Assembly (NCBI RefSeq): GCF_000016745.1
Contig: NC_009483.1
Coordinates: 3,180,001 to 3,212,000 of the forward strand
Reading direction: 5' to 3'
DNA: 32,000 bases
From: Geotalea uraniireducens Rf4
GTDB lineage: Bacteria > Desulfobacterota > Desulfuromonadia > Geobacterales > Geobacteraceae
Shown here: piece by piece, positions 15,940 to 32,000 of the stretch
Layout: every line of letters begins with the position of its first letter
How positions within the stretch are numbered: the first letter of the stretch is position 1
Translations under genes and position numbers: made by a program
The notes under the pieces: model-generated
What the model saw: the letters and a program-made list of their open reading frames with translations, nothing else
Databases searched by the model: none
Told to the model about the DNA's origin: nothing

Positions 15940-15955
15940 AGCATTACTGATGCCA
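15940..15955 (-). promoter_or_regulatory. Candidate sigma-54 (-24/-12) promoter, TGGCAT-N5-ATGCT
   Basis: The minus strand reads TGGCATcagtaATGCT, with the invariant GG and GC at the canonical 12-nt offset. It lies about 225 nt upstream of the tetrahaem cytochrome ATG. A sigma-54 activator gene is encoded 1 kb upstream. Confidence 0.55.
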
Positions 15956-16203: not shown

Positions 16204-16443
16204 TCAGCGCTTGACGCCTTTCGACCTTTGCCTTATTCCATGGGCGTATACGGCCAGAGGAAGAAGCTTTTTATGTTTGACGAGCACCTCCTCCAGCGAA
16301 CCTGCATCATTGATGATGATGTCGTTTGCACCCAGTGCGGTTTCGGCGCTATGTCGGCCGTTCGGGCAGCTGTATACCATTATGGGGTAATCATTCCCGT
16401 GGATATTGATGAATGATTTGTGCACCAGTATTTTATTTGTCAT
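16204..16443 (-). CDS. Small hypothetical protein (79 aa)
   Basis: A GGAGG RBS lies 5 nt before the ATG at 16443 (the track ORF extends to 16491). I recognise no motifs. It overlaps an implausible Cys/Arg-rich plus-strand ORF. Confidence 0.4.
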   Translation of the reverse strand: MTNKILVHKSFINIHGNDYPIMVYSCPNGRHSAETALGANDIIINDAGSLEEVLVKHKKLLPLAVYAHGIRQRSKGVKR

Positions 16444-16521
16444 GACGCCTCCACCCTGCCACATCCTGTCGACAGGCATTAATTTCATCATTCAAGGGTG
16501 TTGTTCAGACCTTATGAAATC

Positions 16522-16697
16522 GTAACTATTCAGCTTACTGCCAAAACCTATAACCCCACCTGTCCTCCCCTTAAGCTAAGGGGAGGGACGCTATGTTGTC
16601 GCTGTATCGGAAGTCCCAGACGAAGCCGATTTTCACGTCCCCCCTCTTAAGTTAAGAGGGGGACAGGGGGAGTTATCCATCGCTGCTGAATAGTTAC
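16522..16697. mobile_element. 176-bp MITE-like foldback element carrying two GC-rich hairpin units
   Basis: 13-bp terminal inverted repeats: GTAACTATTCAGC (16522-16534) and GCTGAATAGTTAC (16685-16697). The direct repeat ATGAAAT occurs at 16514-16520 and 16698-16704, with 1 nt of slack on the left. Each arm has a hairpin (16562-16589, GTCCTCCCCTTAAGCTAAGGGGAGGGAC; 16637-16664, GTCCCCCCTCTTAAGTTAAGAGGGGGAC) followed by an ACAGG(T/G)GG(G/A)GTTAT tail, in inverted orientation. Confidence 0.65.
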
Positions 16698-16849
16698 ATG
16701 AAATTAAAGAGAGAGGAGCAGTATTAATGCCAAATAATTAGTTATTATTTATTTGAAGAGGGTGGCGAAGAATTCACCGAACTGATAAACAGGAGAAAGG
16801 AGGGAGTTACCCGGGAAGGCATTACCAAGAAAGTAGCAGAAACACGATT

Positions 16850-18208
16850 TCAAACCGCCCGGATACGTTTCAACCGTTCCCACAGAACCTTTCGGGAAAG
16901 GCCCAGGATACTCGCTGAACGGGTTTTATGGCCGCCGACACTATGGAGGACTTTTTCAATGTACTTATTCTCGAAATCTGCAACCGCTTCCTTCAAGGGT
17001 TTGCCGACGGCAAACGATTCGAAAAGCCTGGCGGCCAAGTCGGGATTCTGCATCGAAACCGACAGGTGGCGCGGTTTGATGATTTCTCCGGGATAGAGAA
17101 TGGATATGTGTTCGACGATGTTTTGCAATTCCCTGACATTTCCCGGAAAACCGTAGTTACAAAGTGTTTCCAGGGTCTCGGGAGTAAAATGAGGCTTCGG
17201 GCGGGGATTTTTTTCCTGAAACCGCTTCTGGAAATAGGCGATCAAAAGTGGAATATCTTCCCGTCTTTCCCTTAATGGCGGAATTGTTATCGGCACAACG
17301 TTTATGCGGAAAAAAAGGTCTTCGCGAAATGCCCGTGTACCGGCCAGCACCTTGAGATCCCTGTTGGTTGCGGCTACAAGGCGGAAATCCACGTCATACT
17401 CCATGCTGCCGCCGACCCTGTGGATGGCCTTCTCCCCCAGCGCCCGCAGGAATTTCCCCTGGAGGAAAAGCGGCAATTCTGCGATTTCATCGAGAAACAA
17501 GGTCCCTTTATCCGCCGCTTCCAGGTATCCGCATCGGCTTTTATCCGCGCCGGTGTATGCCCCGCGTTCGACGCCGAACAGCTCGCTTTCGAACAGGGTC
17601 TCCGGTATGGCTGCGCAATTCACCTTGATGCATGGATGTTTGCTCCTGCGGCTTTTTGCGTGAATAATTTCCGCAAGTAAATCCTTGCCGGTGCCGCTCT
17701 CTCCCAGCAGCAGCACCGTGGCATCTGTAGCAGCCACCATTGCGGCCGTCTGCAAAATATCTTTCATAACCGGACTGCGGGTTATGCATTCACAACTCAA
17801 CCCAGCGGCTTCGTCCCGGGAATCGATCTCTTTTTCCACTTGCCTGAATTCCATCACACTCTGCAGTTTCTGGAACAGAGTTTCCATGGTGAACGGCTTG
17901 GTTAAAAAATCGAAGGCCCCCATTTTCATGGCCTTGACCGCCTTCTCTATCGTTCCGTTGCCGGTCATGACCAGGGCCCGGCAATAGGGGGTTTTGCCGA
18001 GAACCTCGCCCATGATATCCAGACCATCGGCATCCGGCAGACCGAGATCTTCCAGCAGGAGATCAAAGCTGTCTTCTGTCAGCGCCTGCAGGGCATCGGC
18101 ACCGCTTTGTGCCAGTCTTACCTGATAGCCGGAGCTTTCCAGCGCCCGCTTGAGGGGCTCGCCCAAAAGCGGCTCGTCATCCACTACAAGTATTTTAATC
18201 CTGCTCAT
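16850..18208 (-). CDS. Sigma-54-dependent response regulator (NtrC family: REC, AAA+, HTH)
   Basis: REC domain (KILVVDDEP...KP), Walker A (GESGTGK), a GAYTGA variant of the GAFTGA sigma-54 contact loop, ESELFG, and a C-terminal Fis-type HTH (RSASILGLSRKVLWERLKR). The start is placed at the ATG at 18208, with a GGGGAGGGG RBS. Confidence 0.9.
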   Translation of the reverse strand: MSRIKILVVDDEPLLGEPLKRALESSGYQVRLAQSGADALQALTEDSFDLLLEDLGLPDADGLDIMGEVLGKTPYCRALVMTGNGTIEKAVKAMKMGAFDFLTKPFTMETLFQKLQSVMEFRQVEKEIDSRDEAAGLSCECITRSPVMKDILQTAAMVAATDATVLLLGESGTGKDLLAEIIHAKSRRSKHPCIKVNCAAIPETLFESELFGVERGAYTGADKSRCGYLEAADKGTLFLDEIAELPLFLQGKFLRALGEKAIHRVGGSMEYDVDFRLVAATNRDLKVLAGTRAFREDLFFRINVVPITIPPLRERREDIPLLIAYFQKRFQEKNPRPKPHFTPETLETLCNYGFPGNVRELQNIVEHISILYPGEIIKPRHLSVSMQNPDLAARLFESFAVGKPLKEAVADFENKYIEKVLHSVGGHKTRSASILGLSRKVLWERLKRIRAV

Positions 18209-19673
18209 TATGCCCCTCCCCATTGATGGGTATCATAACGGTAAAAACGGTTTCACCACGGCGGCTGTCGAGCAGTATGGCGCCATGATGCATATCCACG
18301 ATGGTTTTGCATATGGCCAACCCAATCCCGCTCCCCTTGCCGGACGGCTTGGTGGTGTAGAAGATCTCGAAGATTTTTTCCCGTGCCTCATCGGGCACTC
18401 CTTCTCCTTCGTCCTTAACGGAAAAACAGTAATGGTCGCCGCACAGGAATGTGGAAAACTCGATGGTTCCCTGTGGCGGCGAAGCATCCGCGGCATTTAT
18501 CAATATGTCCAGGACAACCTGATGGAGCTTCCCCTTATCCATCAGGATAGCCACAGGGGGAACGCACATATCCGCTGCTTTCAGCGAAAGAGAATGTTTC
18601 TTCAATGCCATTCCGCCGAAAGAGGCTGCCTCATGAAAGAACAGGTCGCTTCGCACCGGTTGCAAGGCCAGATTGCCGGCATGGCTGAAGTCCGACAACT
18701 GCTTGACGATATTCTGTATCCTGAAAAATCCCTGTTTCAGGGTGTCGATGTCGGCCTGCATTTTTTCCGAAGCGCTTAGTCCGAGATTATAAAGACAGCT
18801 CGAAATGGCTGCCAGCGGGTTGTTCACTTCATGGGCAACCCCGGCAACGAGCTTGCCGGTTAATGCAAGTTTCTCGTTTTGCACCATCGAAAGAACAGCA
18901 CGCTGACGCTCGGCTTCGCTCTGTTTCAAGCGGTCGATCATGGCGCTGAAACTCCTTTGCAACAGGCCGATTTCATCGCGTCTTTGCCCCGGTAGCGAAG
19001 CATCCAGCGTTTCGTGCGTAACATCGGCCATAGCTATGGAAAGTTGCCTCAAGGGACGTGTCATGGTCAAACCGATTATGTAGAAAATCGTTGTACCCGT
19101 AAGAAAGATCAGGGCGGAAAAGCTCCATATCGTTCGCTTCATTGAATCGAGCATTGATTCAAGCGGTGCAAGAGAAAATCCGACACGGAGCGCCCCCCAA
19201 CTTTTCCCGTGGATGTTCAGCGGCATAGCCATGTGAAGAACGGAGTTGCCATCCCCCTCGCCATGAACCTTCATGCTGCGATATTTGTTGTCTGAAAGTG
19301 CTGCAAGGGTAAAAGGATCGTTATACACCTTGCCGTATTCCATCGGACGATTGTGGGCAATAACCTTGCCGTGCTGGTCTGTTATAAAGGCATAAACCGT
19401 CTTGTATTCCCGATTCTCTACGATTTCCTCGAGAAGATTGTCGAGGAAATCGCGTGCTTCATGTGATCCCAGTTCTTCGTTGATGATGGCGTTGATTATG
19501 GGAACCTTCATGGATGTCAAAAGCAATTTCCCGTCACTTTCCAGCTTCCCGGACAGGTTTCTCTCTTCGACATGCAAGAACCATCGTCCCACCGTAAAAG
19601 ACGAGATCGCCACGATTACGGCAGCCGTCAATACGAATTTTGTCTTCAGACTGAATACGAGCCTTGTTCTCAT
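18195..19673 (-). CDS. Membrane sensor histidine kinase (periplasmic sensor domain, HAMP, HisKA, HATPase_c)
   Basis: Two TM segments flank a periplasmic region of about 170 aa. H-box AHEVNNPL. The ATP-binding region includes GSGIGLAI. The ATG at 19673 overlaps the upstream stop (TGATG); the track uses a TTG at 19694. Confidence 0.85.
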   Translation of the reverse strand: MRTRLVFSLKTKFVLTAAVIVAISSFTVGRWFLHVEERNLSGKLESDGKLLLTSMKVPIINAIINEELGSHEARDFLDNLLEEIVENREYKTVYAFITDQHGKVIAHNRPMEYGKVYNDPFTLAALSDNKYRSMKVHGEGDGNSVLHMAMPLNIHGKSWGALRVGFSLAPLESMLDSMKRTIWSFSALIFLTGTTIFYIIGLTMTRPLRQLSIAMADVTHETLDASLPGQRRDEIGLLQRSFSAMIDRLKQSEAERQRAVLSMVQNEKLALTGKLVAGVAHEVNNPLAAISSCLYNLGLSASEKMQADIDTLKQGFFRIQNIVKQLSDFSHAGNLALQPVRSDLFFHEAASFGGMALKKHSLSLKAADMCVPPVAILMDKGKLHQVVLDILINAADASPPQGTIEFSTFLCGDHYCFSVKDEGEGVPDEAREKIFEIFYTTKPSGKGSGIGLAICKTIVDMHHGAILLDSRRGETVFTVMIPINGEGHNEQD

Positions 19674-20551
19674 CAATGACAGCCTTTGCCGCAACTGGAA
19701 GGAATGGTTTTGAACATTCGCGACACCTGCCGGTAGTCTGATAATTTGGCCGTGGTGAAGCCGTATTTAAACGTGTCGTCCCAGTTGCTCATGAGTTTTT
19801 CATGGGAAGGATTGGTCCTGTCCAGCATGAGAAGGGCGTCCGTAACAGCCTTGACAAGCTGCTTCGGCGCGTCGCCCCTCACCACGATCGGGGCCGTCGG
19901 TATGGGATTGGAATATGCCAACACGCGCAGCCCTTCTTTTCGGTACTTTTCTGCCGTTATGTCATTTACCGCGCCGGCGTCGTACTCTCCTCTGAGCACG
20001 GCCCTGGCCACTTCATCATGATTTCTGAGGTTGGTGAACGAGCCGAGTTCCTGCATATAGACCCTCTTGCTCAACAGCAGATAGCGCGGGAAAAGGTTGC
20101 CGGAAGTGGAGTGAAGGTTGCCGAACGCCACTTTTTTGCCTTTGAGGTCCTGCAAGGAATTGAGCGGAGAGATGCGGGGGACAACGATCGCGCTCCGGTA
20201 CGAAGGACGGCCGTCTTCCCTCAGCGGCATGAGAATGGGGACCGCGCCGAAGCGGAGCCGCGCCTCCACAAAGGCGATATCGCCGAGGAAGCCGAGCTGG
20301 GTCGTGCCGTATTTGAGAAATCTCAGGGTTTCAAGGTAGTCGCGGCTGATCTTGAGTTCAAAGCGGTAAGGAGTGTTTTGCGTCAGGTAGTCCATGAGCG
20401 GCTGGTAACGCTTGTACATGCTGATGGGATTGTAACGGAGGTTGACGCCGAAACGGACCACCGGTTTCTCCGTTGTCTTGGAACGCGCGGTAAAGAGCGG
20501 CGCAACGAGTAGCGCCAGGAATACCACTGAAAACAACTGCTTCCTTTTCAT
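19673..20551 (-). CDS. PhnD-like periplasmic substrate-binding protein ending in CGKGCH
   Basis: Signal peptide (MKRKQLFSVVFLALLVAPL), then RFGV...Y.PL..YL......FEL........L..G..QLGFLG...HSTSG, typical of the phosphonate-binding-like (PhnD) fold family commonly paired with kinases. The extreme C-terminus is SSCGKGCH. The start is placed at the ATG at 20551, with a GGGAG RBS. Confidence 0.75.
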   Translation of the reverse strand: MKRKQLFSVVFLALLVAPLFTARSKTTEKPVVRFGVNLRYNPISMYKRYQPLMDYLTQNTPYRFELKISRDYLETLRFLKYGTTQLGFLGDIAFVEARLRFGAVPILMPLREDGRPSYRSAIVVPRISPLNSLQDLKGKKVAFGNLHSTSGNLFPRYLLLSKRVYMQELGSFTNLRNHDEVARAVLRGEYDAGAVNDITAEKYRKEGLRVLAYSNPIPTAPIVVRGDAPKQLVKAVTDALLMLDRTNPSHEKLMSNWDDTFKYGFTTAKLSDYRQVSRMFKTIPSSCGKGCH

Positions 20552-20598
20552 TTCGGAACTCCCTGGTGAAGGTATTCCACACCGGCATGGGCCGGGAA

Positions 20599-22353
20599 CT
20601 AATAACTTCTCGGGTTGGTGGAATGACAACTGACTGAACAGCTTCCTGCGCCATAGACGGCAGTGGGTCCTGCATAGCGTGTATCAAAGTTGATCAGGTG
20701 AAGATTAGCCGCAACACCGTGGGGGTCGTGGCAGGCGGAGCAAGGTGCTTCTTTTCCCGTATGATCAAGCACATGCGCTTTATGCAGGGCAACCGATGGA
20801 GCGTTTGGCGGCCTCGTGGGGTTCAGCAGGTAGTCCGGGTCGTGGCAGCGGAAGCAGAGCGGATAGGTTTTGTCGGCAGACGGATAGGTCTCGCTGTTTT
20901 TTTCTTTCAGCATGTGAGGCTCGTCTGCGCCCATGGGGCTGTGACAATCGCAGCAGTAAATCATGGTCATCCTGGTCTGATACTGCAACAGGAGGCTTTT
21001 CCCAGTCCCTTGGCGACTTCCTGTTACCGGGTGGTAGGACATATTGCTTGCCGCAAAACGAAGGCTTTCGTCCAGCACATCAGATTGCCGCAAAGGACGT
21101 TCTATGAATTTTTTGAAGACGGCGTTCGTATATGCATGGCACTTGAAACAAATCTGGAACTCGGCTGTAGCCGGTGCGACTTCGCTTTTGCCGGATTCGT
21201 CGACGCCTCTCACCCCTCTCAGAGCACCGTTAATTGCCGGCGGAGTTGCAGCAGGAGCAACCAGGGGGGTGCCGGATCCGAATGGAACGCCCTGATAGCC
21301 CGCCTGATGAGGGTTATGGCAGTCCACACATTCCACATGTTTGACCTTGGCCGGCAGCGGTTCGTTCTGCACGTGCCCCCCCTCCCCTGCCGACGGCACA
21401 CTGTGGGTGTAAGCTTTATTGAACAGCGATCTGATATCCCCGTCGGTGTTTGCGCCGTTATGGCAGGTGCCGCTGCCATCGCGGTGAAAGCAGTTTTCGC
21501 CGGGAACGGCGCTCTTCAGCAAATGGACTGCTCCGGGAGCGCTGTGCGGAAAATGGCAGGTGATGCATCCCGATTTCGAGACGTTGGCGCCGTTGGTGGA
21601 ATCTCTTACCCCACCTGTCCGGTGGGTGCTGTCAGGGAGGTTCCACCCCGACTTCCTGTGACAGGCGGTACAGAGCGGAGTGCCGGGATTTTCCCAGGGG
21701 ATGTTGTTTATGACGGTGAAGTTATCGTTCAGGTTATTGTGCGGGTCATGGCAGGAAGTGCATTCGAGGTAGATGCCCTCCGACAGCCTGATCCCCTTGG
21801 CTGCCAACAACTGCGGGTTTTCCAGCTCGGCATCTGCCTCATAGGTGTAAGGGAACGAGATGGGATGATCGTCCGACAGGTCCCACCCCAGGTTGGTTAT
21901 TTTAGCGGGATCGGTGTCGACAGCATCCTTCACCATCTTCGGCATACCGTTGTCCAGATTGTAGGTACCGGTTAATGCGCCGAGAGCCACGGTTCCGTCA
22001 TGGCAGCTCAGGCATAGCCGCGATGCCCCTTTTGGTTGACCGGGCTTTGCCTTGAGGGTTGTCGACCCATACGGAATATAGGTGGTAAGAGTCGAAATCT
22101 GACGGCTCCACAACGGGCCGTCGCCATTGGCATGGTGGGGTGCATGGCAGAAGATGCAGATCTTTTCTTCCTTTGTCGACTGGTACAACGGGGTGTGCCC
22201 TTTATCAGGCGCACCTTTACCGCTCGTGGAGAGATTGTGCGGGGTATCGGCAACATTGGAGCCCCGGTTGGATGCATGGGCCTGCCCCATGCTCAGAAGG
22301 GCAAAGGCGCATAGTATCCAAAATGCGTGCAGTGGCCGTATTTGCCTGTTCAT
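20599..22353 (-). CDS. Secreted multihaem cytochrome c (584 aa; 10 CXXCH plus the variants CSVSCH and C-X8-CH)
   Basis: Signal peptide (…GQAHA). The N-terminal half is a paralogue of the 270-aa tetrahaem protein (PHNL....CIFCHAPHHA..PLWS..LCLSCHDG..DHPISF..CTSCHDPHN..LCTACH). The start overlaps the upstream stop (ATGA). Confidence 0.9.
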   Translation of the reverse strand: MNRQIRPLHAFWILCAFALLSMGQAHASNRGSNVADTPHNLSTSGKGAPDKGHTPLYQSTKEEKICIFCHAPHHANGDGPLWSRQISTLTTYIPYGSTTLKAKPGQPKGASRLCLSCHDGTVALGALTGTYNLDNGMPKMVKDAVDTDPAKITNLGWDLSDDHPISFPYTYEADAELENPQLLAAKGIRLSEGIYLECTSCHDPHNNLNDNFTVINNIPWENPGTPLCTACHRKSGWNLPDSTHRTGGVRDSTNGANVSKSGCITCHFPHSAPGAVHLLKSAVPGENCFHRDGSGTCHNGANTDGDIRSLFNKAYTHSVPSAGEGGHVQNEPLPAKVKHVECVDCHNPHQAGYQGVPFGSGTPLVAPAATPPAINGALRGVRGVDESGKSEVAPATAEFQICFKCHAYTNAVFKKFIERPLRQSDVLDESLRFAASNMSYHPVTGSRQGTGKSLLLQYQTRMTMIYCCDCHSPMGADEPHMLKEKNSETYPSADKTYPLCFRCHDPDYLLNPTRPPNAPSVALHKAHVLDHTGKEAPCSACHDPHGVAANLHLINFDTRYAGPTAVYGAGSCSVSCHSTNPRSY

Positions 22354-23426
22354 TTCTTAGCGCCTCTCACCATTGCGTCACCCAGCTTCAGGTACCTGAA
22401 CACCTGGACCCGGCGGTTATAGGTATCTGCAACATAGATATAATCTTTCCCATCTATGTAAATGCCTGACGGCATCCAGAATTGCCCTTCCTGCCCACCG
22501 TTGCTCCCGAAATCGAGGAGAACCCGGCCTGTTCCGTCAAAGATCTGCACCGCGTCGAATAGCGCATCGCAGACATAAATATGACCTTCGCTGTCAACGG
22601 CAACCCCCTTTGGTTTGGCGAAACTTCCGGAGGAATCGCCGGCCCTGCCGAACACATCCAGCAGCTGTCCATCAGGAGAAAATCTCTGAATTCTGAAATT
22701 CAGCGCATCCGTTACCAGCAAGCTCCCCTGGGCATCCACAAACAGGTCGGTAGGATAATTGAACTGACCGGGCAGATCCCCCCTGACGCCTATCCTCATT
22801 CGCTCCATGCCGTCGAGGCCGAAGGCGATTACCTGGTGAGCCGCGGTATCGGTCACATAGATCAGCTTATTGCGCCGGTTGTAGGCTATCCCCGTCGGTC
22901 TCCCCAGCTTGAAGGGTACAAACGGGGAAAGCTCCTTTCGAATAAGGCTGTATCGGTAGATAGCGCCTGCTGACGAATCCGTTATGTAGACATTCTCCTG
23001 TTCATCCTCCGTAATGGCGATCGGAGTCCTGAAAACGGCTTTGTCTTCTTTCCCGATGAGGAAATATTCCTTGTTTCTCATGTCCATGACGTGAACGACA
23101 GAAGCCCCCACGTCAACGACGAAGAGCCGCTCTTTCTCGTCGCAGAAAACGCCGTACGGCTTGATGATGCGGGTTTTATCCTCTCCGAAAACCAGATCCG
23201 CCAGCCGTTGCCAGAACCCTTTGCTGATCCCTGCATCGCGATAATCGTTAATGTCCTTTACCCATTCTATCCTCGGCTCCAGTGGCAAAGGCGGCCATTG
23301 AAGTTCACGACTCGCAGACCTTTGTCCGGTGGCGGATGAGGATGCACAGGCGGTTACATACAGGCAGGCAAGTACAGCGCAGATAACCTTCATGCTTTTT
23401 ACAAGGACGGATGTTCCCAGTTGCAA
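22350..23426 (-). CDS. NHL-repeat beta-propeller lipoprotein
   Basis: Lipobox (LYVTAC). There are about six repeats of the (F..P.GIA/VAVD..G.IYV.D..N.RIQ.F) NHL pattern. The start is ambiguous: TTG at 23426 directly abuts the AAGGAGG, and the ATG at 23393 lacks a good RBS. Confidence 0.85.
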   Translation of the reverse strand: MQLGTSVLVKSMKVICAVLACLYVTACASSSATGQRSASRELQWPPLPLEPRIEWVKDINDYRDAGISKGFWQRLADLVFGEDKTRIIKPYGVFCDEKERLFVVDVGASVVHVMDMRNKEYFLIGKEDKAVFRTPIAITEDEQENVYITDSSAGAIYRYSLIRKELSPFVPFKLGRPTGIAYNRRNKLIYVTDTAAHQVIAFGLDGMERMRIGVRGDLPGQFNYPTDLFVDAQGSLLVTDALNFRIQRFSPDGQLLDVFGRAGDSSGSFAKPKGVAVDSEGHIYVCDALFDAVQIFDGTGRVLLDFGSNGGQEGQFWMPSGIYIDGKDYIYVADTYNRRVQVFRYLKLGDAMVRGAKK

Positions 23427-23442
23427 CCTCCTTTTCCAAAGG

Positions 23443-23528
23443 CTTCCCCCCTCCCGACCTCCCCCCGCTGGGGGGAGGAAGCAGGTCCCCTCCCCAGGAG
23501 GGGGAGGGTTGGGGAGGGGGCGAGGTGG
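23443..23528. repeat. GC-rich composite palindrome (two hairpin units in inverted orientation)
   Basis: Hairpin 1: CCTCCCCCC-GCT-GGGGGGAGG (23458-23478). Hairpin 2: CCCTCCCC-AGGAG-GGGGAGGG (23488-23508). The flanking G/C-rich tails (23443-23459 and 23509-23528) are approximate reverse complements of each other. It lies between the barrel gene stop and the NHL gene start. Confidence 0.7.
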
Positions 23529-23540
23529 ACCGTTGACAGA

Positions 23541-25526
23541 TCAAAAAAACCTTGTCAACTCCAGCCGCACCTGTTCGTCACGTGTTGAATTGCTTCCCAG
23601 GTCCTGCCAGTTCATCTGCGATAGAAGCGTTATGATAACGTTCCTGACAACCATCTGCATATTAAGACTGACGGAAATAAGATCCCTGCTGACGGACCCG
23701 CCCCTGGAGTTGGCGTAGTCGGTCTTCAATTTCATGTCTGCCATACCAAAAAGGACTTTGCGGTAAAGCATGCCGAGTTTCAGCAGGTTTTCCGAATAGG
23801 CCGTGGAACTCGATCCGGCAAAAGGGTTTACATCGTACATGGTATAGGTGTCCTTCATGTAAAGGGAAAGCAAACCACGGGCAAATCCCCGGTCATGGCC
23901 GGCAAACCCTTCCATGGTCTGGTGTTTGTCTTCCCTTGAATCGTAATTCAGATATTGGGCTCCGAAGGAAACACTCTCCTGCTTGGAATCAAAGCCGAAC
24001 CGGTAAGAGTGCTGTGAACTCAAGCGTATGACGTCATCCCGGCCGGCCAAAAGATCCTGATTCATATCATTGAAGTCGCCGAACAACCTGTAACGTCCAT
24101 CAAGGAAAGAAATATATCCTCCGATACTGCGGGAATATGTCGCATACTTGATTGATGGATTCAGAAGGTACGAATAGGTGACAAACAGGTTGTCACCATC
24201 GTTAATTGTAGGGCTGCTGAGGAATATCAGCCTCGTTTGAGTGCCGATCTGCTCTACCCAATAATCCATCCCGAGGGTATAGCGAATCGAACTTTTAGCC
24301 GGATCCGCACTGCGAACAATGATGCTGTCCGTCACCACATTCCTGTTGATCAGGATATTCTGCTCAAAATACCTGGCAGTGAGCGGTTCATCGATAACCA
24401 ATGCCGTGTTGCCGTCCCTTTTACTGTCTATAACATCGACTCGTTGTGAAAAATTCAGCTTCAGGTTGCTTCTCTGCGGCAATCGCTTCTGATAGCTGAT
24501 GTTGAATGAACCGCCGATATCGTTCTCACTGCCGCTGTTTATATCATTCTGCCTTATCTGGAAAGCCAGGCGGGTAGTCAGGCTTTGAAACAGTCTATGC
24601 TGCAGCCATGCGCCACCGAAATTAGAAATCTCCCGCTGGCCCATGCTCCGATTATGGGTATTCTCATACTCAAGACCTGCATCCATTGCCTTGCCCAGCG
24701 CCATGTTGAAATTTTCCACCCAGATGGAATATGTGTTGTCAATCAGTCCCGATGAGTCATGTAGCTTGTATGAAGAGTTGAGTTCTTTTTTCTGCCCAGC
24801 CCAATTCAGGCGATTCCTGACCGAATATTCACTGCTCGTGAAACGTGCCGAATCAGCGCCACCTATCAGGGCACTACGGTTCTCGCTATGGAAAATGGCG
24901 GCATCGGTCTGACTGATGTCCCTGATTTTGTTCGACATGCTCATTGAAATATTCTCGGTGTCCTGTGTTCTGTCCTGATATTGACCACTGGTTTTACTGT
25001 TTATGACCGAATAATATGCTTTCATAGGTAGAAATCTGTTCTTTATGGAAAGACCTACCCCGTTACTGTCGGTCAGTAAATCATAGCCGCCGGAAAACTC
25101 CCGTTGCACATGATTCCTTGATGAATTGGAGAAGAAGCTGACCGGAAACGGTTTGCGATCCAGTAATATGCCGTCAATGCTGTACTGGAAATTTACAGCG
25201 GAACCGCTTCCGGGCGATGTTCCGCTGGCGGAAAACATCTCCTGATTGAGACTGAAGTCGGCGCTTAAATGCCCCTTGAGTAATCGGTGGGAATATATCC
25301 CATAGGGAATATCGAAGTGATACTTCTCTTCAAAGCGATGCTCTGTTAAGGAAAAATCCCGACTATTGGCGTAGGAGGCGCGTTTTCCGTTGTAGTCATA
25401 TATAAAATCCACTGATTGTTGCAGTTCACCGAGCAGGATAAGACCCCTTTGTTGAGACATTGCCACATCCGGCATTGTTAGAATAAGGATGATGCCCGTA
25501 TGCCATAGGATTTTCTTGAGCCGCAT
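23541..25526 (-). CDS. Large outer-membrane beta-barrel protein (porin-like, 661 aa)
   Basis: Signal peptide (…DVAMS/QQ), pervasive alternating aromatic/hydrophilic beta-strand patterning, Asn/Ser/Tyr-rich composition, and a C-terminal ...LELTRFF with terminal Phe, as in OMP beta-signals. No cysteines or haem motifs. Confidence 0.75.
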   Translation of the reverse strand: MRLKKILWHTGIILILTMPDVAMSQQRGLILLGELQQSVDFIYDYNGKRASYANSRDFSLTEHRFEEKYHFDIPYGIYSHRLLKGHLSADFSLNQEMFSASGTSPGSGSAVNFQYSIDGILLDRKPFPVSFFSNSSRNHVQREFSGGYDLLTDSNGVGLSIKNRFLPMKAYYSVINSKTSGQYQDRTQDTENISMSMSNKIRDISQTDAAIFHSENRSALIGGADSARFTSSEYSVRNRLNWAGQKKELNSSYKLHDSSGLIDNTYSIWVENFNMALGKAMDAGLEYENTHNRSMGQREISNFGGAWLQHRLFQSLTTRLAFQIRQNDINSGSENDIGGSFNISYQKRLPQRSNLKLNFSQRVDVIDSKRDGNTALVIDEPLTARYFEQNILINRNVVTDSIIVRSADPAKSSIRYTLGMDYWVEQIGTQTRLIFLSSPTINDGDNLFVTYSYLLNPSIKYATYSRSIGGYISFLDGRYRLFGDFNDMNQDLLAGRDDVIRLSSQHSYRFGFDSKQESVSFGAQYLNYDSREDKHQTMEGFAGHDRGFARGLLSLYMKDTYTMYDVNPFAGSSSTAYSENLLKLGMLYRKVLFGMADMKLKTDYANSRGGSVSRDLISVSLNMQMVVRNVIITLLSQMNWQDLGSNSTRDEQVRLELTRFF

Positions 25527-25538
25527 ACGACCGTCCTG

Positions 25539-26144
25539 TCATTTCATAAAGTTCGATGCGTTCCCATAGTGCGGGTCGTGACAGTCGGAACAATATATTT
25601 GACGTTCCGACACCTTGTCGTGCAATGCGACCGACAGTCTCTTTTCGCGATGACAAACGGAACAAATCTGATTCTTATCGGCCTTGAGCAAGGACTTGTA
25701 TCTGGAGGTATGCGGCTCGTGACAAGCCAGGCATTCTCCCACTGCGACAGGGCCGTGCACAAAAGAGCCTTTTATGAAATCCTTATGGCACTGAAAGCAA
25801 AGGTCAATTTTAGCTGTAACAAGCCCCCCCTCTTTGCTCTTGTCGTGGCAATCGTCACATTTCTTCTCCTCATAGGGTTGATGTCTCGATGATTGGCCGG
25901 CGCTTTTCCCCGACTCCTCTTTTGCGTGCAGATCATTACCTCCCGCTGCCGTGGTTTTTTCATAATAATCCTTGCAGAATTCATCGGGCGGTGGATAGCT
26001 TGGGACACCATCAAAAACAGTCGACAAAATCTCGTGCCTGCTGACGGCACTGCACCCCGCTGTTACAACAAGACAAATCAGCAAACAGGCCATGAAGCTT
26101 GCCGTGATTTTCCCTTGATTTGCCGAGTGCTTGCCGTCTTTCAC
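25539..26144 (-). CDS. Pentahaem lipoprotein cytochrome c
   Basis: Lipobox (VVTAGC) and 5 CXXCH motifs (CDDCH, CFQCH, CLACH, CSVCH, CSDCH). GTG start 2 nt after the upstream stop. Its stop lies 12 nt before the barrel gene start. Confidence 0.85.
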   Translation of the reverse strand: MKDGKHSANQGKITASFMACLLICLVVTAGCSAVSRHEILSTVFDGVPSYPPPDEFCKDYYEKTTAAGGNDLHAKEESGKSAGQSSRHQPYEEKKCDDCHDKSKEGGLVTAKIDLCFQCHKDFIKGSFVHGPVAVGECLACHEPHTSRYKSLLKADKNQICSVCHREKRLSVALHDKVSERQIYCSDCHDPHYGNASNFMK

Positions 26145-26146
26145 AA

Positions 26147-27337
26147 TTATTTCTTCTCCTGTCCCGCCTCAGCCTTTTTTTGCAGTTCCTTTGTCCCGTC
26201 GCTTCCTTCCTGGACAACTTTCACATCGTCCAGGGCGCTTTTCTGCTGTCCAAGCCCATAAACAGCCACCTTGTTCGGTCCGTACTGATTGATTACGAAA
26301 ATCACGTTCTCCAGTTGAAAAGAAGGATCGGCGAATTTCTGGAAATAATCGAGGTTGTCTCTACTGACGGCTACGCTTGACGGCAGATTCATGGTTCCTT
26401 CCGGCGCCGTGCCCGGATCGCCGAAAAACATCAGCAAGCGTCCCTTATCGTTGAAAATCTGTACATTCTGGTGTGCGGAATCAGCCACATATATGCGGCC
26501 GGCATCGTCAACGGCAACACCCTTGGGTCTGCCGAACTGTCCGAAGCCGTCGCCGAGCTTGCCGAATGACAGGAGGAGATGCCCGTCCCGGTCGAACTTC
26601 ATTACCTTGCCGGTCATGGTATTGGTCACGTAGATAAATCCTTTGCCGTCCACGGCAAAATTCGTCGGGAGTGCCAACCCTTCGGATTGTTCGCTTCCCT
26701 TGCCGATCCGGTCGAGAAGCTTTCCGGTTTTGCTGTCGAGCACCTTGACCTCGGAATGGCCTATATCGACCACATACAGATACTTTCCGTCGACCGCTAC
26801 ATCAGTCGGTTTCATGTCGAGCTCTTTGCCGAAGGCATTTTTAAAATTGCCGGCAGCGTCGTAAACCAGGATCTCTTTCCGTTCAATGTCGGCGATATAC
26901 ATGGCTCCCTCGCCATCGACTGCTATGTTTATCGGCTTCTTGAGTTTGCCGACGCTGAAATTCCCCTTCAAGTATTCGAAGGTTTTCCGGGGGGGATCTA
27001 TTATGGAGACCGTGGCGCCACCGACATCGCAGATGTAGATTTTGCCGTTGCGGGTTGTAACGCCGTACGGTTTTTTAATGGGTTTGACCGTATCCCCTTC
27101 CAGGCTTTTCTGGACGAAAAGGGAAAAACTGCTCTTTTTATCCTCGATATCCTGGGAGTCGGAAATTTTCATGAGATATTGCACCCGTGGGGGATTCGGC
27201 GCGGGTGGGAAAAAGACCGGGCCCGTTGCAGCTTTGGAACCGGCACAGCCGGACAGGGCGGAAGCAAGAAATGGGAAAACAAAGAGAAACCGCAGTTTTT
27301 CCCTGAATACCGAAGTGTTATAAACAAATGTCAGCAT
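26147..27337 (-). CDS. NHL-repeat beta-propeller lipoprotein
   Basis: Lipobox (ALSGC) and repeated NHL blades (…P.GVAVDD.GRIYVADS..H.VQIF…). The start is placed at the ATG at 27337 with a GGAGGA RBS; the track uses a TTG at 27370. The C-terminal tail is Lys/Glu-rich. Confidence 0.85.
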   Translation of the reverse strand: MLTFVYNTSVFREKLRFLFVFPFLASALSGCAGSKAATGPVFFPPAPNPPRVQYLMKISDSQDIEDKKSSFSLFVQKSLEGDTVKPIKKPYGVTTRNGKIYICDVGGATVSIIDPPRKTFEYLKGNFSVGKLKKPINIAVDGEGAMYIADIERKEILVYDAAGNFKNAFGKELDMKPTDVAVDGKYLYVVDIGHSEVKVLDSKTGKLLDRIGKGSEQSEGLALPTNFAVDGKGFIYVTNTMTGKVMKFDRDGHLLLSFGKLGDGFGQFGRPKGVAVDDAGRIYVADSAHQNVQIFNDKGRLLMFFGDPGTAPEGTMNLPSSVAVSRDNLDYFQKFADPSFQLENVIFVINQYGPNKVAVYGLGQQKSALDDVKVVQEGSDGTKELQKKAEAGQEKK

Positions 27338-27384
27338 GTGTCCTCCATAAATTGTACTGATTAGCGTCAATCTTACGCTGAGAG

Positions 27385-27476
27385 CTCCCCCCCTTTAAGA
27401 AAGGGGGGTCAGGGGGGATTTGGTTTGCACCGTCAAAGACAAATCCCCCTAAATCCCCCTTTCTTAAAGGGGGACT
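27385..27476. repeat. GC-rich composite palindrome (two ~35-nt units in inverted orientation)
   Basis: The left unit is CCCCCCCTTTAAGAAAGGGGGGTCAGGGGGGATTT. The reverse complement of the right unit is TCCCCCTTTAAGAAAGGGGGATTTAGGGGGATTT, almost identical. A 19-nt spacer separates the units. It lies 48 nt upstream of the NHL gene ATG. Confidence 0.75.
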
Positions 27477-27557
27477 TTCCAAGAAATTGCTGTTGGCGGA
27501 AGATCCATAAATTGTTGTCGATAAAAGCATGGCCTGAAACCCGTCGGAGTCTGAAGC

Positions 27558-28907
27558 CTATTTCTTGTCATCCAGGTTGTAATCGACAGGGTGTTCCCGG
27601 TCATAACGAAATTTGCGATGGCAGCCCGGGGCGCAACTTCCGCCGGCAGGCGCTATTTCAAAGCGGCTCGGAATTTTCCAATCACCGAATGGGGGGCCTT
27701 CATTGCCGACCAGTTTTTGACCGTTACCGGCATGTGGCTCATGACAGGCCCGACAGGTACGACCCTTGCGCTTGTTGACCACATGAACATAGTGGAGGTT
27801 TTGTTTGCCGTTGCGGAACCTGGTATATATGGTCGTTTCCGGGAAACGGAGCAGGTTCTTGTCGTGGCAGGACAGACAAAAATCATATGCGCCATCCTTG
27901 AAAGGCGCATAAAAGTCACCGGGATAAGGTCCCTTCAGGATTTTTGCGAATTCGGACCCATGGGGGTCATGACATTTTCCGCATTGCCCTTTCTTGACCG
28001 GCTCGTGCAGATCTTTCTTCCCATCCAGTTCTTTTTTCATATTACTCAGTGGAGGCTTGCCGAGACTGTCGTTCCCGTGGCAACCAAGGCATACGGTCTG
28101 TTCGTCGTACGGCAGCAGACCTTTGACTTTGGAAAAATGGGGAGAATGGCAATTGCCGCAGCTCCCTTGCTCCTGGAGCGGCTTGTGCAGGGTTTTCACC
28201 CCCTTTAATTTCTTGTCCACGGCTTCATGGCATTCAAGACAAAGATCGGGCATCTTTTTGTTGAGGATATGGGCGAAGGGTGAGCCGTGTGGATTGTGGC
28301 AGGCTGTGCAGGGATCGTCCTTCACCGGCGGATGGACGATCGGTGCAGCTCCCATTGCCTTGGCAAAGTCCTCGTGGCATTTCAGGCACGTATCGCGGAT
28401 ATTTCCCGCGAGAAGCGATTTTTCCGAAGATTCATGCGGGTTGTGACACTTGGTGCATGCCCCGGCCGCAACGGGGCCGTGCATGAAGTTTGATTTGAAC
28501 CGGGCGTTGTCATGGCACCCCAGGCAAAGCGCTGCCTGGTCTTCTTCCACATCCAGGAGAAAAGGTCCCTGGGCGCCGTGCGGTTTGTGGCAGGAGAGGC
28601 AGTTTCCGTCCTTCACCGGACCATGCACAACCTTCTTTTGCCCCATGGCCGGATGGCACTGTTCGCAGAGTTTCGCTCCCTTGGCGATCAGCTCAAAACT
28701 CTTGCCTCCCCCAAGGATTGGATGCGTCGGGGCGCGCCTCACGTGGCAAGCGAGACAGTCTTCTTCTTTTACCGGTTGATGGAGATTTTTGAGGTCGGCA
28801 ATCGCCTTGTGACAAGCGGCGGTAAAACAGGAGCCGGCGTGGGCAGGTGAAGCAGTGGCAAGCACAACACACAAAGAAAAATAAGTGGTAAATAGATCGC
28901 ATCTCAT
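27558..28907 (-). CDS. Periplasmic multihaem cytochrome c built from c7-like repeats (13 CXXCH plus N-terminal CX4CH and C-terminal CX3CH)
   Basis: Signal peptide (…SPAHA). The unit H.PV..G.C..CH.PH.......L......C..CH recurs, as in Geobacter poly-c7 'dodecahaem'-type proteins. Motifs were counted by hand. Confidence 0.9.
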   Translation of the reverse strand: MRCDLFTTYFSLCVVLATASPAHAGSCFTAACHKAIADLKNLHQPVKEEDCLACHVRRAPTHPILGGGKSFELIAKGAKLCEQCHPAMGQKKVVHGPVKDGNCLSCHKPHGAQGPFLLDVEEDQAALCLGCHDNARFKSNFMHGPVAAGACTKCHNPHESSEKSLLAGNIRDTCLKCHEDFAKAMGAAPIVHPPVKDDPCTACHNPHGSPFAHILNKKMPDLCLECHEAVDKKLKGVKTLHKPLQEQGSCGNCHSPHFSKVKGLLPYDEQTVCLGCHGNDSLGKPPLSNMKKELDGKKDLHEPVKKGQCGKCHDPHGSEFAKILKGPYPGDFYAPFKDGAYDFCLSCHDKNLLRFPETTIYTRFRNGKQNLHYVHVVNKRKGRTCRACHEPHAGNGQKLVGNEGPPFGDWKIPSRFEIAPAGGSCAPGCHRKFRYDREHPVDYNLDDKK

Positions 28908-28967
28908 TTCACTATCCTTGCGTAGCGCATCACACTTAAGGAGTGTTAATTATATGATACTTATCAA

Positions 28968-28983
28968 AGCAAGATGGATACCA
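28968..28983 (-). promoter_or_regulatory. Candidate sigma-54 (-24/-12) promoter, TGGTAT-N5-TTGCT
   Basis: The minus strand reads TGGTATccatcTTGCT with canonical GG/GC spacing. The predicted 5' UTR to the ATG at 28907 is about 50 nt. This is the first promoter-like element upstream of the nine-gene minus-strand block. Confidence 0.6.
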
Positions 28984-29556: not shown

Positions 29557-30309
29557 TCATCGCTTCCCGCACACCGGACATCCCTGCATGGAGAGTGGTT
29601 TCTCAAGCCGGCATTGGGCAAGCAGGGCTTCGTTCTGGAAAATCTCCCGGGTGGGGCCATCGGCCTTGACCTCCCCCTGGTTGAGTATGATTGTACGCTC
29701 GCAGAGTTCGAGAACCATATCAAGGTCATGGCTGGTGAAGATCTTGGTGTGGTGAAAATCCTTGAGAAGTCCCATGAGCTGCCGCCGTGCGAACGGGTCG
29801 AGTCCGTTGGTCGGCTCATCCATGACGAGAATATCCGGGGACATGGAAAGAACCGTGGCAATGGCCACTCGTTTCTTCTCGCCTCCTGAAAGGTGATACG
29901 GAGCTTTCTCCTGGAGATGAACCGCCCCCACACGCTGGAGCGCATCCATTACCCGCTGCTCCACCTCTGCCCCAAAGAGACCGAGATTCAAAGGGCCGAA
30001 TGCGACATCGTCATAAACCGTCGGCATGAAGAGCTGATCGTCCGGGTCCTGGAAAACCATCCCAACCGTGCGTCGAATCTCCGGCAGGGTTGCCTTGTTC
30101 ATGGGGAAATCGCCGATGCGGATCTCACCAGCGGTCGGGGCCAGATAACCGTTGAGATGGAGCAGAAGGGTCGATTTACCCGCGCCGTTGGCGCCGATGA
30201 TCGCTACGGACTCACCATGGGTGATTCTGAAGGAGATGTCACTCAGGGCTGCCGTGCCGTCGGGATAGACGTGGCGAAGATTTTTGACCTCTACAATATG
30301 ATGACTCAT
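29557..30309 (-). CDS. cbiO: ECF-type cobalt/nickel transporter ATPase
   Basis: Walker A (GANGAGKST), MVFQDPDDQLF, signature LSGGEKKRVAIA and Walker B (ILVMDEP). The ATG at 30309 overlaps the cbiQ stop (ATGA); the track ORF extends to 30390. Confidence 0.85.
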   Translation of the reverse strand: MSHHIVEVKNLRHVYPDGTAALSDISFRITHGESVAIIGANGAGKSTLLLHLNGYLAPTAGEIRIGDFPMNKATLPEIRRTVGMVFQDPDDQLFMPTVYDDVAFGPLNLGLFGAEVEQRVMDALQRVGAVHLQEKAPYHLSGGEKKRVAIATVLSMSPDILVMDEPTNGLDPFARRQLMGLLKDFHHTKIFTSHDLDMVLELCERTIILNQGEVKADGPTREIFQNEALLAQCRLEKPLSMQGCPVCGKR

Positions 30310-31118
30310 CGGGATATTCCTGTGACAAGCGATCCCAGAAGCTGCGAGGCGTTCTGGAGCCGCAAGGTGATGAAGAGTGTTGACCAGCAAAGCAAAAAGA
30401 GGTGTTCTCTTCTGCCGAAGCGGAATTCATGGCGCGTGTGGAATTCGCCGGTGAAACCTCGCGCCAGCATGGCCATATGGATTCGCTCTGCCCGCAGCCA
30501 GGTTCTGAGCAGGAGATGCCCAAGCAGGGAGCCATAGGTTTTCATGCCCAGCCCCTTGTTGCCGAATGAGCGGAGGGCCCGTGCCCGCGACGCCCGCCCG
30601 CCTTCCTCGGTGAGAACGAAGATGTAGCGGTAAAGAAAAAGGAGCTGCACGGCAAACGCCGCCGGCATACCCAACCTTTCCAATGCCCGGCAGATGGCGG
30701 GGAAGCCGGTTACGGCCAATAGAATTATCGCAGCCCCGACGGTGAGAGCGGCTCGAACCACGATAGAAGCACAGGAAATCCAGCCACCGGTTATCCCCAA
30801 TGGACCTAGCTGGACCAGCACTTCCCGGTCGAAAACCGGGTTGAATATGGCGACTACCAGGGCAAAGGGACAGAGAAGTGCGATTTTCCTGGCAATATAA
30901 CCGGCAGGAAGATTGCCGAGCCCGATAATAACCGCCGGGAAAATGAAAAAGGGAACCATGGCGGTCAGCTCATATTTGCCAAAGGAAACTACGGTCACGA
31001 TAAAGACGAAGGTCACCAGAACCTTTGCTCGCGGATCGAGGCGATGGATCGCCGAATCCCCGGTTGCCAGGCTGTCCAGACGCTTGAAATCCAGTAGTAC
31101 CCCATCAATGGATAACAT
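30306..31118 (-). CDS. cbiQ: ECF transporter transmembrane (T) component
   Basis: Polytopic membrane protein with the conserved DPR.K near the N-terminus and the ...A...RGF motif region (MLARGF). It sits between the cbiM-like and cbiO genes. Confidence 0.8.
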   Translation of the reverse strand: MLSIDGVLLDFKRLDSLATGDSAIHRLDPRAKVLVTFVFIVTVVSFGKYELTAMVPFFIFPAVIIGLGNLPAGYIARKIALLCPFALVVAIFNPVFDREVLVQLGPLGITGGWISCASIVVRAALTVGAAIILLAVTGFPAICRALERLGMPAAFAVQLLFLYRYIFVLTEEGGRASRARALRSFGNKGLGMKTYGSLLGHLLLRTWLRAERIHMAMLARGFTGEFHTRHEFRFGRREHLFLLCWSTLFITLRLQNASQLLGSLVTGISR

Positions 31119-31195
31119 AAGCTCTCACAAAACGAGGGAGAGCCAACGGCCCATCCCTCGTTTCCGGTTCTCCTGCAACTCCGGCATTCGGCTCA

Positions 31196-32000
31196 TCAGG
31201 CCGCCTTGTTGCGCTTCTTGAGGAGAAATCCGCTAAAGAAGGCAAGCGCCAGGGTCATCAGTGTGCCGACGATCCCCGCGATACTGGTGCCAAGGTTGCC
31301 CTCCGCCTCTTTTTTCTTCTCTATTGCAGGATTCTCCCCTTTGTTCTTTGGCTCAACAGGCTTTTTAAATGAATAATCAGGCAGGAAAGCGGATTTTTCC
31401 TGGATAGCGGCCAATGCTCCGTGCAGTCCATGTTCCGGTCCTTGCAGCTCTTCTTTGCCCGTTACCCTGGCAATGGCCCATTCAAGGCCATCCGGGTCTT
31501 TCGAGGCAAACCAGGAGACTCCACCGCCGGTGAGGATGGCAGCAGCCAGGAAAGCAAGCAGCACGTTGCGCACCGGATGGTTCCCGATGGGACGGACTTC
31601 CATGGCTCCATGCATGATCTCGGGCCGGGCCTTGTACACGAACGACACCACCGCAACGGTCACAAACCCTTCCACAATCCCGATCGCCAGGTGAATTGGC
31701 TGCATAAGGAGTGCAAACGTGGTGAACGGCAGTGCAGAAATACCGGAGAATAAAGTTTCCAGAACGACGCTGAAAGATCCCAACTGTAACCCGACAACGG
31801 CAGCTATCAGGGTTGCCATTGTCAGACGCTTTTGATCAGGGTTGCTGCCAAGTATTTTTTTATAGACAAAAGGATAGGTAATAAACGCGGGGAAAAAGCC
31901 CATGTTGAAAATATTGCAGCCGAGGGCCAGCAGGCCGCCATCGGCAAAGAAAAGCGCCTGGACAACGAGCACCGAAGCAATGGTCAGAAAAGCGGCGCAG
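31196..32000 (-). CDS. cbiM: CbiM/NikM-type ECF substrate-capture component fused to a PDGLE-domain segment (5' end outside the window)
   Basis: QALFFADGGLLALGCNIFNMG is a CbiM hallmark, and the C-terminal part has the PDGLEW motif. The frame stays open upstream of the track's GTG at 31972 to the window edge (…CAAFLTIASV), so the gene is truncated by the window. Confidence 0.8.
   Translation of the reverse strand, partial: CAAFLTIASVLVVQALFFADGGLLALGCNIFNMGFFPAFITYPFVYKKILGSNPDQKRLTMATLIAAVVGLQLGSFSVVLETLFSGISALPFTTFALLMQPIHLAIGIVEGFVTVAVVSFVYKARPEIMHGAMEVRPIGNHPVRNVLLAFLAAAILTGGGVSWFASKDPDGLEWAIARVTGKEELQGPEHGLHGALAAIQEKSAFLPDYSFKKPVEPKNKGENPAIEKKKEAEGNLGTSIAGIVGTLMTLALAFFSGFLLKKRNKAA

Follow-up and report, generated by a model that had tools for sequence, protein, structure and literature searches.

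A predicted OmcE-family extracellular electron-transfer module in Geotalea uraniireducens Rf4

A stretch of 32,000 nucleotides (nt) of the Geotalea uraniireducens Rf4 genome (contig NC_009483.1, positions 3,180,001 to 3,212,000; hereafter the window, whose first letter is position 1) carries an operon of six genes for three multihaem cytochromes, two NHL beta-propeller lipoproteins and a large outer-membrane beta-barrel. The locus probably specifies a module for extracellular electron transfer that belongs to the OmcE family and is controlled by sigma-54 and a two-component system; we put the probability of this reading at about 0.6. Its most likely function is that of a trans-outer-membrane haem relay and an anchoring module for cytochromes of the type of OmcE, the nanowire subunit of Geobacter sulfurreducens. 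Judged from sequence, the locus belongs to the OmcE/Uet/Occ-type class and probably not to the Omb/Ext-type conduits. It is not a new kind of system: the class has already been named (omcE minimal, Uet, Occ, DFE, osc), yet it is mechanistically unsolved. The six genes are, in operon order:

27558-28907, minus strand: cytA, 449 amino acids (aa), secreted multihaem cytochrome, MtrA/DmsE-like, presumed periplasmic relay
26147-27370, minus strand: NHL1, 407 aa, NHL beta-propeller lipoprotein
25539-26144, minus strand: cyt5, 201 aa, pentahaem lipoprotein
23541-25526, minus strand: barrel (BAR), 661 aa, outer-membrane beta-barrel, ends in TRFF
22350-23426, minus strand: NHL2, 358 aa, six-bladed NHL beta-propeller lipoprotein
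20599-22353, minus strand: cytB, 584 aa, secreted cytochrome with 12 conserved haem sites

All six open reading frames (ORFs) proved real and co-directional, as had been proposed in an earlier reading of the sequence (the original prediction). They are separated, in operon order, by 187, 2, 12 and 114 nt, and the last two genes, NHL2 and cytB, overlap by 4 nt. The true start of NHL1 is probably an ATG near 27337. The original prediction ended the unit with cytB; three regulator genes follow without real gaps.

Components of the operon

The last gene of the operon provides the link to OmcE. Residues 25-234 of cytB align with the entire G. sulfurreducens nanowire subunit (PDB 7tfs_A; expectation value, E, 2.4e-21) and also match a second filament cytochrome, of 218 aa (9yuq_N, E 2e-15). 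A short OmcE paralogue of 270 aa, hereafter E4, lies 4.9 kilobases downstream of cytB, past the regulators, and matches 7tfs_A with E 4.5e-15. Both the domain and the paralogue had been overlooked in the original prediction. Four CXXCH motifs and four other conserved histidines at haem-ligand positions are kept in the OmcE unit of cytB and in E4 alike. From its sequence, E4 is a candidate filament subunit.

Related loci were collected with an OmcE alignment in a scan of one genome per species, which gave at least 571 confirmed loci; counts for related loci rest on 80 of these. Further loci were obtained with the barrel as seed: L001 (an 82% identical homologue), L002 (34% identical, on an incomplete contig), L085, L087 and L088.

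The last cytochrome had been described as a 10-haem protein. It has ten CXXCH motifs, but the family alignment contains 12 conserved haem sites, which in cytB are the ten CXXCH, a CX8CH at residues 288-298 and a conserved C-terminal CX3CH. The CX8CH is haem site 6 (CFHRDGSGTCH, window 21460-21492); this form is found in the window and in L001, and 50 of 54 relatives have CXXCH at the same site. Most family members in related loci (56 of 62) possess 11 CXXCH motifs plus the conserved CX3CH. Outside the motifs the family conserves 16 histidines, four above the number needed for bis-histidine ligation at 12 haem sites. Analysis with hhalign (probabilities of 96-97%) revealed an internal triplication of cytB into related tetrahaem units covering residues 30-236, 237-425 and 426-584. 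Homologues of cytB are numerous (5383 at E 1e-20 or better), and their annotation goes no further than "cytochrome c3 family protein"; among them are proteins of Geotalea sp. SG265 (70% identity), Desulfuromonas versatilis, Geobacter sp. SVR and Geomonas sp. RF6.

Both cytA and cytB have signals of the signal-peptidase-I type. The 13 CXXCH motifs previously counted in cytA were found, together with a CX4CH at residue 27 and a CX3CH at residue 425. The accompanying label "poly-c7" is imprecise, because the protein is dominated by Paired_CXXCH_1 units (seven in Pfam, E 6e-75) and comes closest, among solved structures, to MtrA (E 2e-15); on the Pfam and NCBIfam domains and the MtrA match it was replaced by MtrA/DmsE-like. 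An AGSC at residues 24-27 resembles a lipobox. It is unlikely that cytA is a lipoprotein, because Cys27 belongs to the CX4CH motif and most relatives have no lipobox. The predicted pentahaem lipoprotein of 201 aa, cyt5, does have five CXXCH motifs and a lipobox (TAGC). About 60 aa of linker separate its lipid anchor from an MtrA-like paired-CXXCH domain, for which MtrA is again the best solved relative (6r2q_A, E 3e-11). In 20 of 26 related loci the cytochrome encoded immediately before the barrel is pentahaem.

The two NHL lipoproteins are as originally described, with NHL repeats recognised by Pfam in both and lipoboxes LSGC (NHL1) and VTAC (NHL2). NHL2 matches the six-bladed NHL domains of TRIM71 and Thin (E 5e-52). 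Both lipoproteins are homologous to the propellers in Geobacter-type omcE loci (E 4e-63, for NHL2). Each NHL class keeps strictly to its own position: in related loci the gene right after an NHL2-class gene encodes an OmcE domain in 84 of 95 cases, and an NHL1-class gene is followed by a cytochrome or barrel gene in 38 of 42.

The 661-aa barrel, with its TRFF end, has no match in Pfam or NCBIfam and no sequence match in the PDB, and similarity to the MtrB sequence was not detected. Its AlphaFold2 model, computed from an alignment of 82 sequences, is a closed barrel of about 30 strands (mean predicted local distance difference test score, pLDDT, 90.4), in agreement with the original assignment. 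The chain forms 18 strands, a conserved insert (residues 384-445) and then 12 strands. A Foldseek search with this model returned generic large barrels only, the top TM-score being 0.44, with MtrB. Word-indexed searches with the single sequence or with a 25-sequence profile found four proteins only. This count wrongly points to a rare family, since an exhaustive profile search of a 50%-identity representative library (1.84 billion representatives) found 1530 relatives. On the model, the barrel would represent an unannotated family of about 30 strands.

Related loci and known systems

The same nine genes as in the window are present in L001, together with a 79-aa ORF, a short OmcE-like gene and a giant cytochrome gene. 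L002 keeps the order cytA, NHL, pentahaem cytochrome, barrel on its incomplete contig. The loci found with distant barrel representatives as seeds (L085, L087 and L088) read NHL, pentahaem cytochrome, barrel, NHL, cytB-like. The whole locus with its regulators is also found in the complete genome of Geobacter sp. SVR (L083), a cultured host.

An iterated hidden Markov model detected the barrel family in 56 of the 80 OmcE-seeded loci (59 of 82 with L001 and L002). The dominant gene order is a short OmcE-like tetrahaem cytochrome, NHL1, a pentahaem cytochrome (often with a lipobox), the barrel, NHL2 and a cytB-like protein of about 575-595 aa. It was seen in Planctomycetota, Bacteroidota, Calditrichota, Ignavibacteria-like bins and Nitrospirota, and also in Gammaproteobacteria, Verrucomicrobiota, Acidobacteriota and Desulfobulbaceae. 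A short OmcE-like gene lies within four genes of 35 of the 37 barrels that are fully internal to their loci, and a cytB-like gene no more than three genes downstream of 27 of them. The stand-alone tetrahaem subunit is the first gene of the module in most related loci; the six-gene operon of the window contains none. This architecture appears to be the commonest among OmcE-associated clusters in genomes. The original prediction had named a lack of co-conservation of the NHL genes with the barrel and cytochromes as a point that would count against it; co-conservation is strong in the related loci, so this objection falls away.

A 2025 preprint reports one constant set for all of the smallest omcE clusters: a pair of multihaem cytochromes, a pair of beta-propeller lipoproteins, OmcE and a large barrel (bioRxiv 10.1101/2025.10.22.684050). 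The parts list of this minimal cluster (Desulfuromonadia; filament PDB 7tfs) is that of the window locus. Geobacter-type loci L003, L004, L006, L013 and L015 served as stand-ins for G. sulfurreducens GSU0612-0620 in the comparisons. They contain a 9-10-haem cytochrome homologous to cytA (E 2e-70 to 4e-77) and, as in the window, sigma-54 motifs, which lie upstream of omcE. In contrast to the omcE minimal cluster, the window locus fuses the OmcE domain to eight more haem sites and has its free tetrahaem paralogue outside the operon; a pentahaem lipoprotein replaces an 8-haem cytochrome, and the gene order differs. The barrel is shorter, at 661 aa versus about 750-800 aa, and sequence homology between the two was not detected; by sequence they are analogous, not demonstrably homologous.

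The uet cluster comprises a tetrahaem cytochrome UetA, a barrel UetC with 28 predicted strands, NHL proteins UetH and UetI, and an undecahaem cytochrome UetJ (bioRxiv 10.1101/2022.05.06.490989), and the occ cluster of Candidatus Dechloromonas occultata includes the undecahaem OccP and 6-NHL proteins. The window locus resembles uet (Candidatus Tenderia electrophaga, Gallionella) and occ in its tetrahaem cytochrome, large barrel, two NHL proteins and undecahaem type of cytochrome, and in that NHL2 directly precedes the roughly 580-aa cytB-type undecahaem. Unlike uet, it has no trihaem c7 (UetD, E, G), cupredoxin (UetF) or prolyl isomerase (UetB) among the ORFs of 16850-28907; their place is taken by a pentahaem lipoprotein and a 13-haem cytochrome. 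By way of L010-type loci, cytB is assigned to the UetJ/OccP undecahaem type, and its homology to UetJ and OccP would follow through the same loci. A statement that the undecahaem consists of OmcE-like units was not found in the texts consulted on related clusters.

L010 itself (positions 9935-20684), from a Thiohalomonadaceae metagenome-assembled genome, has the published uetA-J gene order and encodes an OmcE-like tetrahaem cytochrome, NHL2-class propellers and a cytB-like cytochrome. Its UetA-like protein is the OmcE-like one and its last gene the cytB-like one, which links the Uet system to the OmcE family.

MtrCAB (PDB 6r2q), OmaB/OmbB/OmcB and ExtABCD/ExtEFG share with the window locus the logic of a periplasmic multihaem cytochrome, a barrel and a lipoprotein cytochrome. 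The likeness to MtrCAB extends to the MtrA-like sequences of cytA and cyt5 and to MtrB as the best, if distant, structural match of the barrel. However, these conduits have no counterpart of the NHL propellers or of the OmcE domain, and their barrels have 26 strands versus about 30. The general idea of a conduit or an export/assembly machine put forward in the original prediction is supported, but the closest kin of the locus appear to be the omcE minimal, Uet and Occ clusters and not OmaB/OmbB/OmcB or Ext.

Multihaem cytochromes are encoded together with NHL beta-propeller proteins in D. ferrophilus IS5 as well (DFE_0448-0451 and DFE_0461-0465), a likeness taken from published descriptions only. 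Starvation for electron donors induces these clusters, whose products are proposed to assemble into a complex at the outer membrane; unlike in the window, no barrel is reported for them. A Geoalkalibacter locus combines MtoA-like and OmcE-like cytochromes with two NHL proteins, and a 2026 preprint on peat describes a "porin-scaffold-cytochrome" system with OmcE-like cytochromes. Analogous roles for barrel and NHL proteins have been proposed for uet, omcE clusters and D. ferrophilus (10.1101/2022.05.06.490989; 10.1101/2025.10.22.684050; PMC5815863).

An NHL gene, GSU2505, adjoins omcS (PMC9070056), and PMC13194489 places the cytochrome GSU2495 in the osc (omcS companion) operon of G. sulfurreducens; together these give partial backing to the statement, in the original prediction, that NHL genes and a large cytochrome flank omcS. 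As described (Shen et al. 2025, cited in PMC13194489), the osc operon resembles the window locus in that a filament cytochrome is accompanied by large multihaem cytochromes, a neighbouring NHL gene and factors to which folding, secretion and morphology have been ascribed as proposed roles. OmcS, however, is a hexahaem cytochrome of a different sequence family. The suggested "cytochrome-companion" class was right in spirit, but related clusters had already been named, with mechanisms that are so far proposals.

Promoters, regulators and downstream cytochromes

The following features lie upstream and downstream of the six genes:

28968-28983, minus strand: sigma-54 type -24/-12 element TGGTATCCATCTTGCT, about 60 nt upstream of the cytA start
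19673-20629, minus strand: PhnD-like periplasmic binding protein (Pfam Phosphonate-bd, E 2e-66)
18195-19694, minus strand: Cache/HAMP sensor histidine kinase, from its Pfam domains
16850-18223, minus strand: NtrC/AtoC-type sigma-54-dependent response regulator (Pfam Sigma54_activat, E 4e-64)
16717-16732, minus strand: sigma-54-like -24/-12 element preceding the 79-aa ORF, weaker than TGGTATCCATCTTGCT
16204-16443, minus strand: conserved cytoplasmic ORF of 79 aa, with counterparts in L001 and Geobacter sp. SVR
15940-15955, minus strand: sigma-54-like element TGGCATCAGTAATGCT upstream of the short OmcE-like gene E4, weaker than TGGTATCCATCTTGCT
14903-15715, minus strand: E4, 270-aa secreted tetrahaem OmcE homologue
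9998-14803, minus strand: 1601-aa secreted PKD-domain cytochrome with 22 CXXCH and 2 CX3CH motifs

The sigma-54 promoter of the original prediction was confirmed as a motif. TGGTATCCATCTTGCT is the sole strict sigma-54 match in the window, with GG at -24, GC at -12 and the correct spacing, and an NtrC-type regulator is encoded in the same gene run. When the upstream region was compared with that of L001, the element, which reads TGGTATTTATCTTGCT there, was the best-conserved block and formed an island. Judged by motif and regulator, the operon is of the sigma-54 type, and sigma-54 and the two-component pair presumably control it. Related loci hold more strict sigma-54 motifs than expected: 2.67 megabases contain 27, versus about 5 predicted from the information content of the motif. 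In at least 12 related loci, Geobacter-type ones included, such a motif directly precedes a short OmcE-like gene, and sigma-54 activators adjoin 22 of the 80 loci. The weaker elements before the 79-aa ORF and E4 have counterparts in L001 and Geobacter sp. SVR.

The PhnD-like protein, kinase and sigma-54 regulator genes extend the co-directional run, with ends that overlap or nearly abut. The start of the PhnD-like ORF is likely an ATG near 20551. Its product is presumed to be a sensor partner, and the gene is linked to the operon also in L001 and Geobacter sp. SVR.

The giant PKD-domain cytochrome has 22-24 haem sites and is presumed to sit at the cell surface. An E4-type gene and a giant cytochrome gene are paired downstream of the module in L001, L083, L085, L087 and L088. 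In L085 and L087 a short cytochrome of about 260-270 aa is followed by a giant multihaem cytochrome, and in L088 a small ORF with no haem-domain match precedes a 965-aa PKD cytochrome. This pairing may be equivalent to Gmet_0556-0558 (NHL, OmcP, OmcO) of the literature. A similar arrangement (NHL, tetrahaem, 21-haem) was seen in L066.

The 79-aa ORF encodes no signal peptide and lies between the sigma-54 regulator and E4 in the window. It is preceded by the sigma-54-like element alike in the window, L001 and Geobacter sp. SVR. In the last of these, an insertion sequence (rve integrase and HTH_Tnp_1; L083 11847-12997) separates cytB from the 79-aa ORF.

Proposed electron path, alternatives and flanking genes

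The observed parts, their homologies, the conserved gene order and pairing and the promoter motif suggest the following topology. The secreted, MtrA-like cytA would carry electrons across the periplasm to cyt5, which would hang from the outer membrane on its flexible linker and pass them on where the barrel opens to the periplasm. With about 30 strands, this barrel would be wider than MtrB. The three OmcE-like tetrahaem units of cytB may form a haem wire of about 10 nm that runs through the barrel or is held at it and exposes OmcE-like surfaces outside the cell. From there electrons could flow to E4, which may be a filament subunit, to the PKD cytochrome with its 22-24 haems, or to minerals and electrodes. 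NHL1 would pair with the cyt5/barrel unit and NHL2 with the OmcE-fold cytochrome, both acting as scaffolds or chaperones that position or fold their partners at the barrel. The operon, including the genes for the PhnD-like protein, kinase and sigma-54 regulator, would be switched on by these three proteins.

Several points weigh against this reading. The repeat alignments of cytB are driven largely by the haem motifs. The cytB model is poor (pLDDT 62) and its Foldseek match to MtrA (E 0.09) is not meaningful; because of this, the rod shape and length proposed here derive from the repeats and from the published description of UetJ. The barrel shows no significant homology to the 740-806-aa barrels of Geobacter-type omcE clusters (hhalign probability 12%); with the barrel of L010, which is UetC-like, its similarity is weak (33 bits at high bias, hhalign probability 16%). 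For the related systems, Uet and that of D. ferrophilus, electron uptake has been proposed, which makes the direction of flow uncertain. An experimental test of any component of the module, the roles of the propellers and barrel included, was not found in the texts consulted, and what cytochrome filaments do for the cell appears to be in dispute as well (PMC11077965).

The best placed of the alternatives, though in our view an unlikely one, is a plain porin-cytochrome conduit of the Mtr/Pcc/Ext kind that makes no filament. In it cyt5 or cytA would sit inside the barrel as MtrA does in MtrB, cytB would act as a surface terminal reductase and the NHL propellers would merely stabilise the complex. 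The composition of the locus does parallel conduits of the MtrCAB type. ExtABCD likewise consists of a periplasmic multihaem cytochrome, a barrel, a pentahaem lipoprotein and an outer cytochrome of about 12 haems, which parallels the window. The MtrA-like character of cytA and cyt5 and the top TM-score of MtrB point the same way, and the uet and peat preprints read similar clusters as conduits. However, such a conduit leaves unexplained why the outer cytochrome contains a complete nanowire-subunit domain, why a short OmcE paralogue is almost always part of the module (35 of 37 barrels) and why NHL2 is tied to OmcE-domain genes even in other cluster architectures; nor does an insert the size of MtrA need a barrel as wide as about 30 strands.

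Slightly less likely still is a dedicated machine for secretion and assembly of OmcE nanowires, organised like a chaperone-usher system. The barrel would be the export and anchoring pore, the NHL proteins periplasmic chaperones for unpolymerised OmcE-fold subunits, and the multihaem proteins cargo or charging partners. A porin model for mounting OmcE filaments has been discussed (bioRxiv 10.1101/2025.10.22.684050), and hypotheses on the osc operon, in which OscEFG serve in secretion and OscH in folding, are cited in PMC13194489. The strict adjacency of NHL2 and OmcE-domain genes and the very wide barrel would suit such a machine, and usher barrels are among the Foldseek matches. These matches are weak, though (TM-score 0.23-0.29), and usher-like plug or periplasmic domains are not evident. 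The conserved pentahaem lipoprotein gene right before the barrel gene suggests electron transfer at that place, and the short OmcE-like gene of the window lies outside the operon.

It is doubtful that the same apparatus works inward, taking up electrons from Fe(II), cathodes or minerals as proposed for Uet of Candidatus Tenderia and for D. ferrophilus. Multihaem wires are reversible in principle, and homologous NHL and undecahaem components occur in electron-uptake organisms. The closest cytB homologues, however, belong to metal-reducing Geobacterales and Desulfuromonadales (Geotalea sp. SG265, 70% identity; Geobacter sp. SVR; Desulfuromonas versatilis), and the window contains no pointer to lithotrophy. 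That the barrel and propellers serve polysaccharide/PEP-CTERM export or substrate uptake and cluster with cytochromes incidentally is effectively refuted, because in the loci examined the barrel was never found away from cytochromes: the synteny (cytochromes and NHL genes flank the barrel in every barrel-seeded locus and in most OmcE-seeded ones) outweighs the want of an annotated barrel family and a similarity of the NHL proteins to ScyF, a PEP-CTERM NHL protein, that lies far below the NCBIfam cut-off (115 and 153 bits versus 350).

Within the reading we prefer, an outward haem relay and anchoring module, a bolder version can be conceived, which we regard as quite improbable in its full form. 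In this version cytB, a covalent "three-subunit" OmcE wire, would be the base on which OmcE-type nanowires stand. It would pass through the barrel of about 30 strands and receive its charge from cyt5 and cytA in the periplasm. Its OmcE-like unit and surplus histidines would let it prime and anchor the polymerisation of short subunits outside the cell, with NHL2 as the chaperone of the OmcE fold. If true, this would account for the initiation of filaments, their anchoring and their electrical link to the periplasm, all of which the OmcE preprint explicitly leaves open (bioRxiv 10.1101/2025.10.22.684050).

The locus bears on three matters: the passage of multihaem nanowire cytochromes across the outer membrane, the site of their anchoring and the task of the NHL propellers that always accompany them. 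As handles on these questions it offers a 12-haem cytochrome of three OmcE-like units, the pairing of NHL2 with OmcE-domain genes, an unannotated barrel family and a sigma-54 regulon. Cultured hosts suitable for tests are Geobacter sp. SVR, Desulfuromonas versatilis and Geomonas sp. RF6.

Directly upstream of the operon, as in L001, lie genes for an energy-coupling factor cobalt/nickel transporter of the CbiO/CbiQ/CbiM type (window 29557-31972, minus strand). L001 has an additional 264-aa CarboxypepD_reg gene, in place of which the window has about 570 nt of non-coding DNA. Farther downstream, a plus-strand gene for a 276-aa hexahaem c7-type cytochrome stands beside a minus-strand gene for a DUF3108-like lipoprotein (7420-8992), and the gene at 3932-6721 (minus strand) specifies a hybrid histidine kinase of 929 aa that combines four or more PAS domains with a receiver domain. 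At the far end, positions 152-3031 (minus strand) encode a 559-aa AIPR-family protein and a 331-aa TIR-domain protein; the guanine-plus-cytosine content there is 35-40% versus about 52%, and the stretch looks like a small anti-phage defence island.

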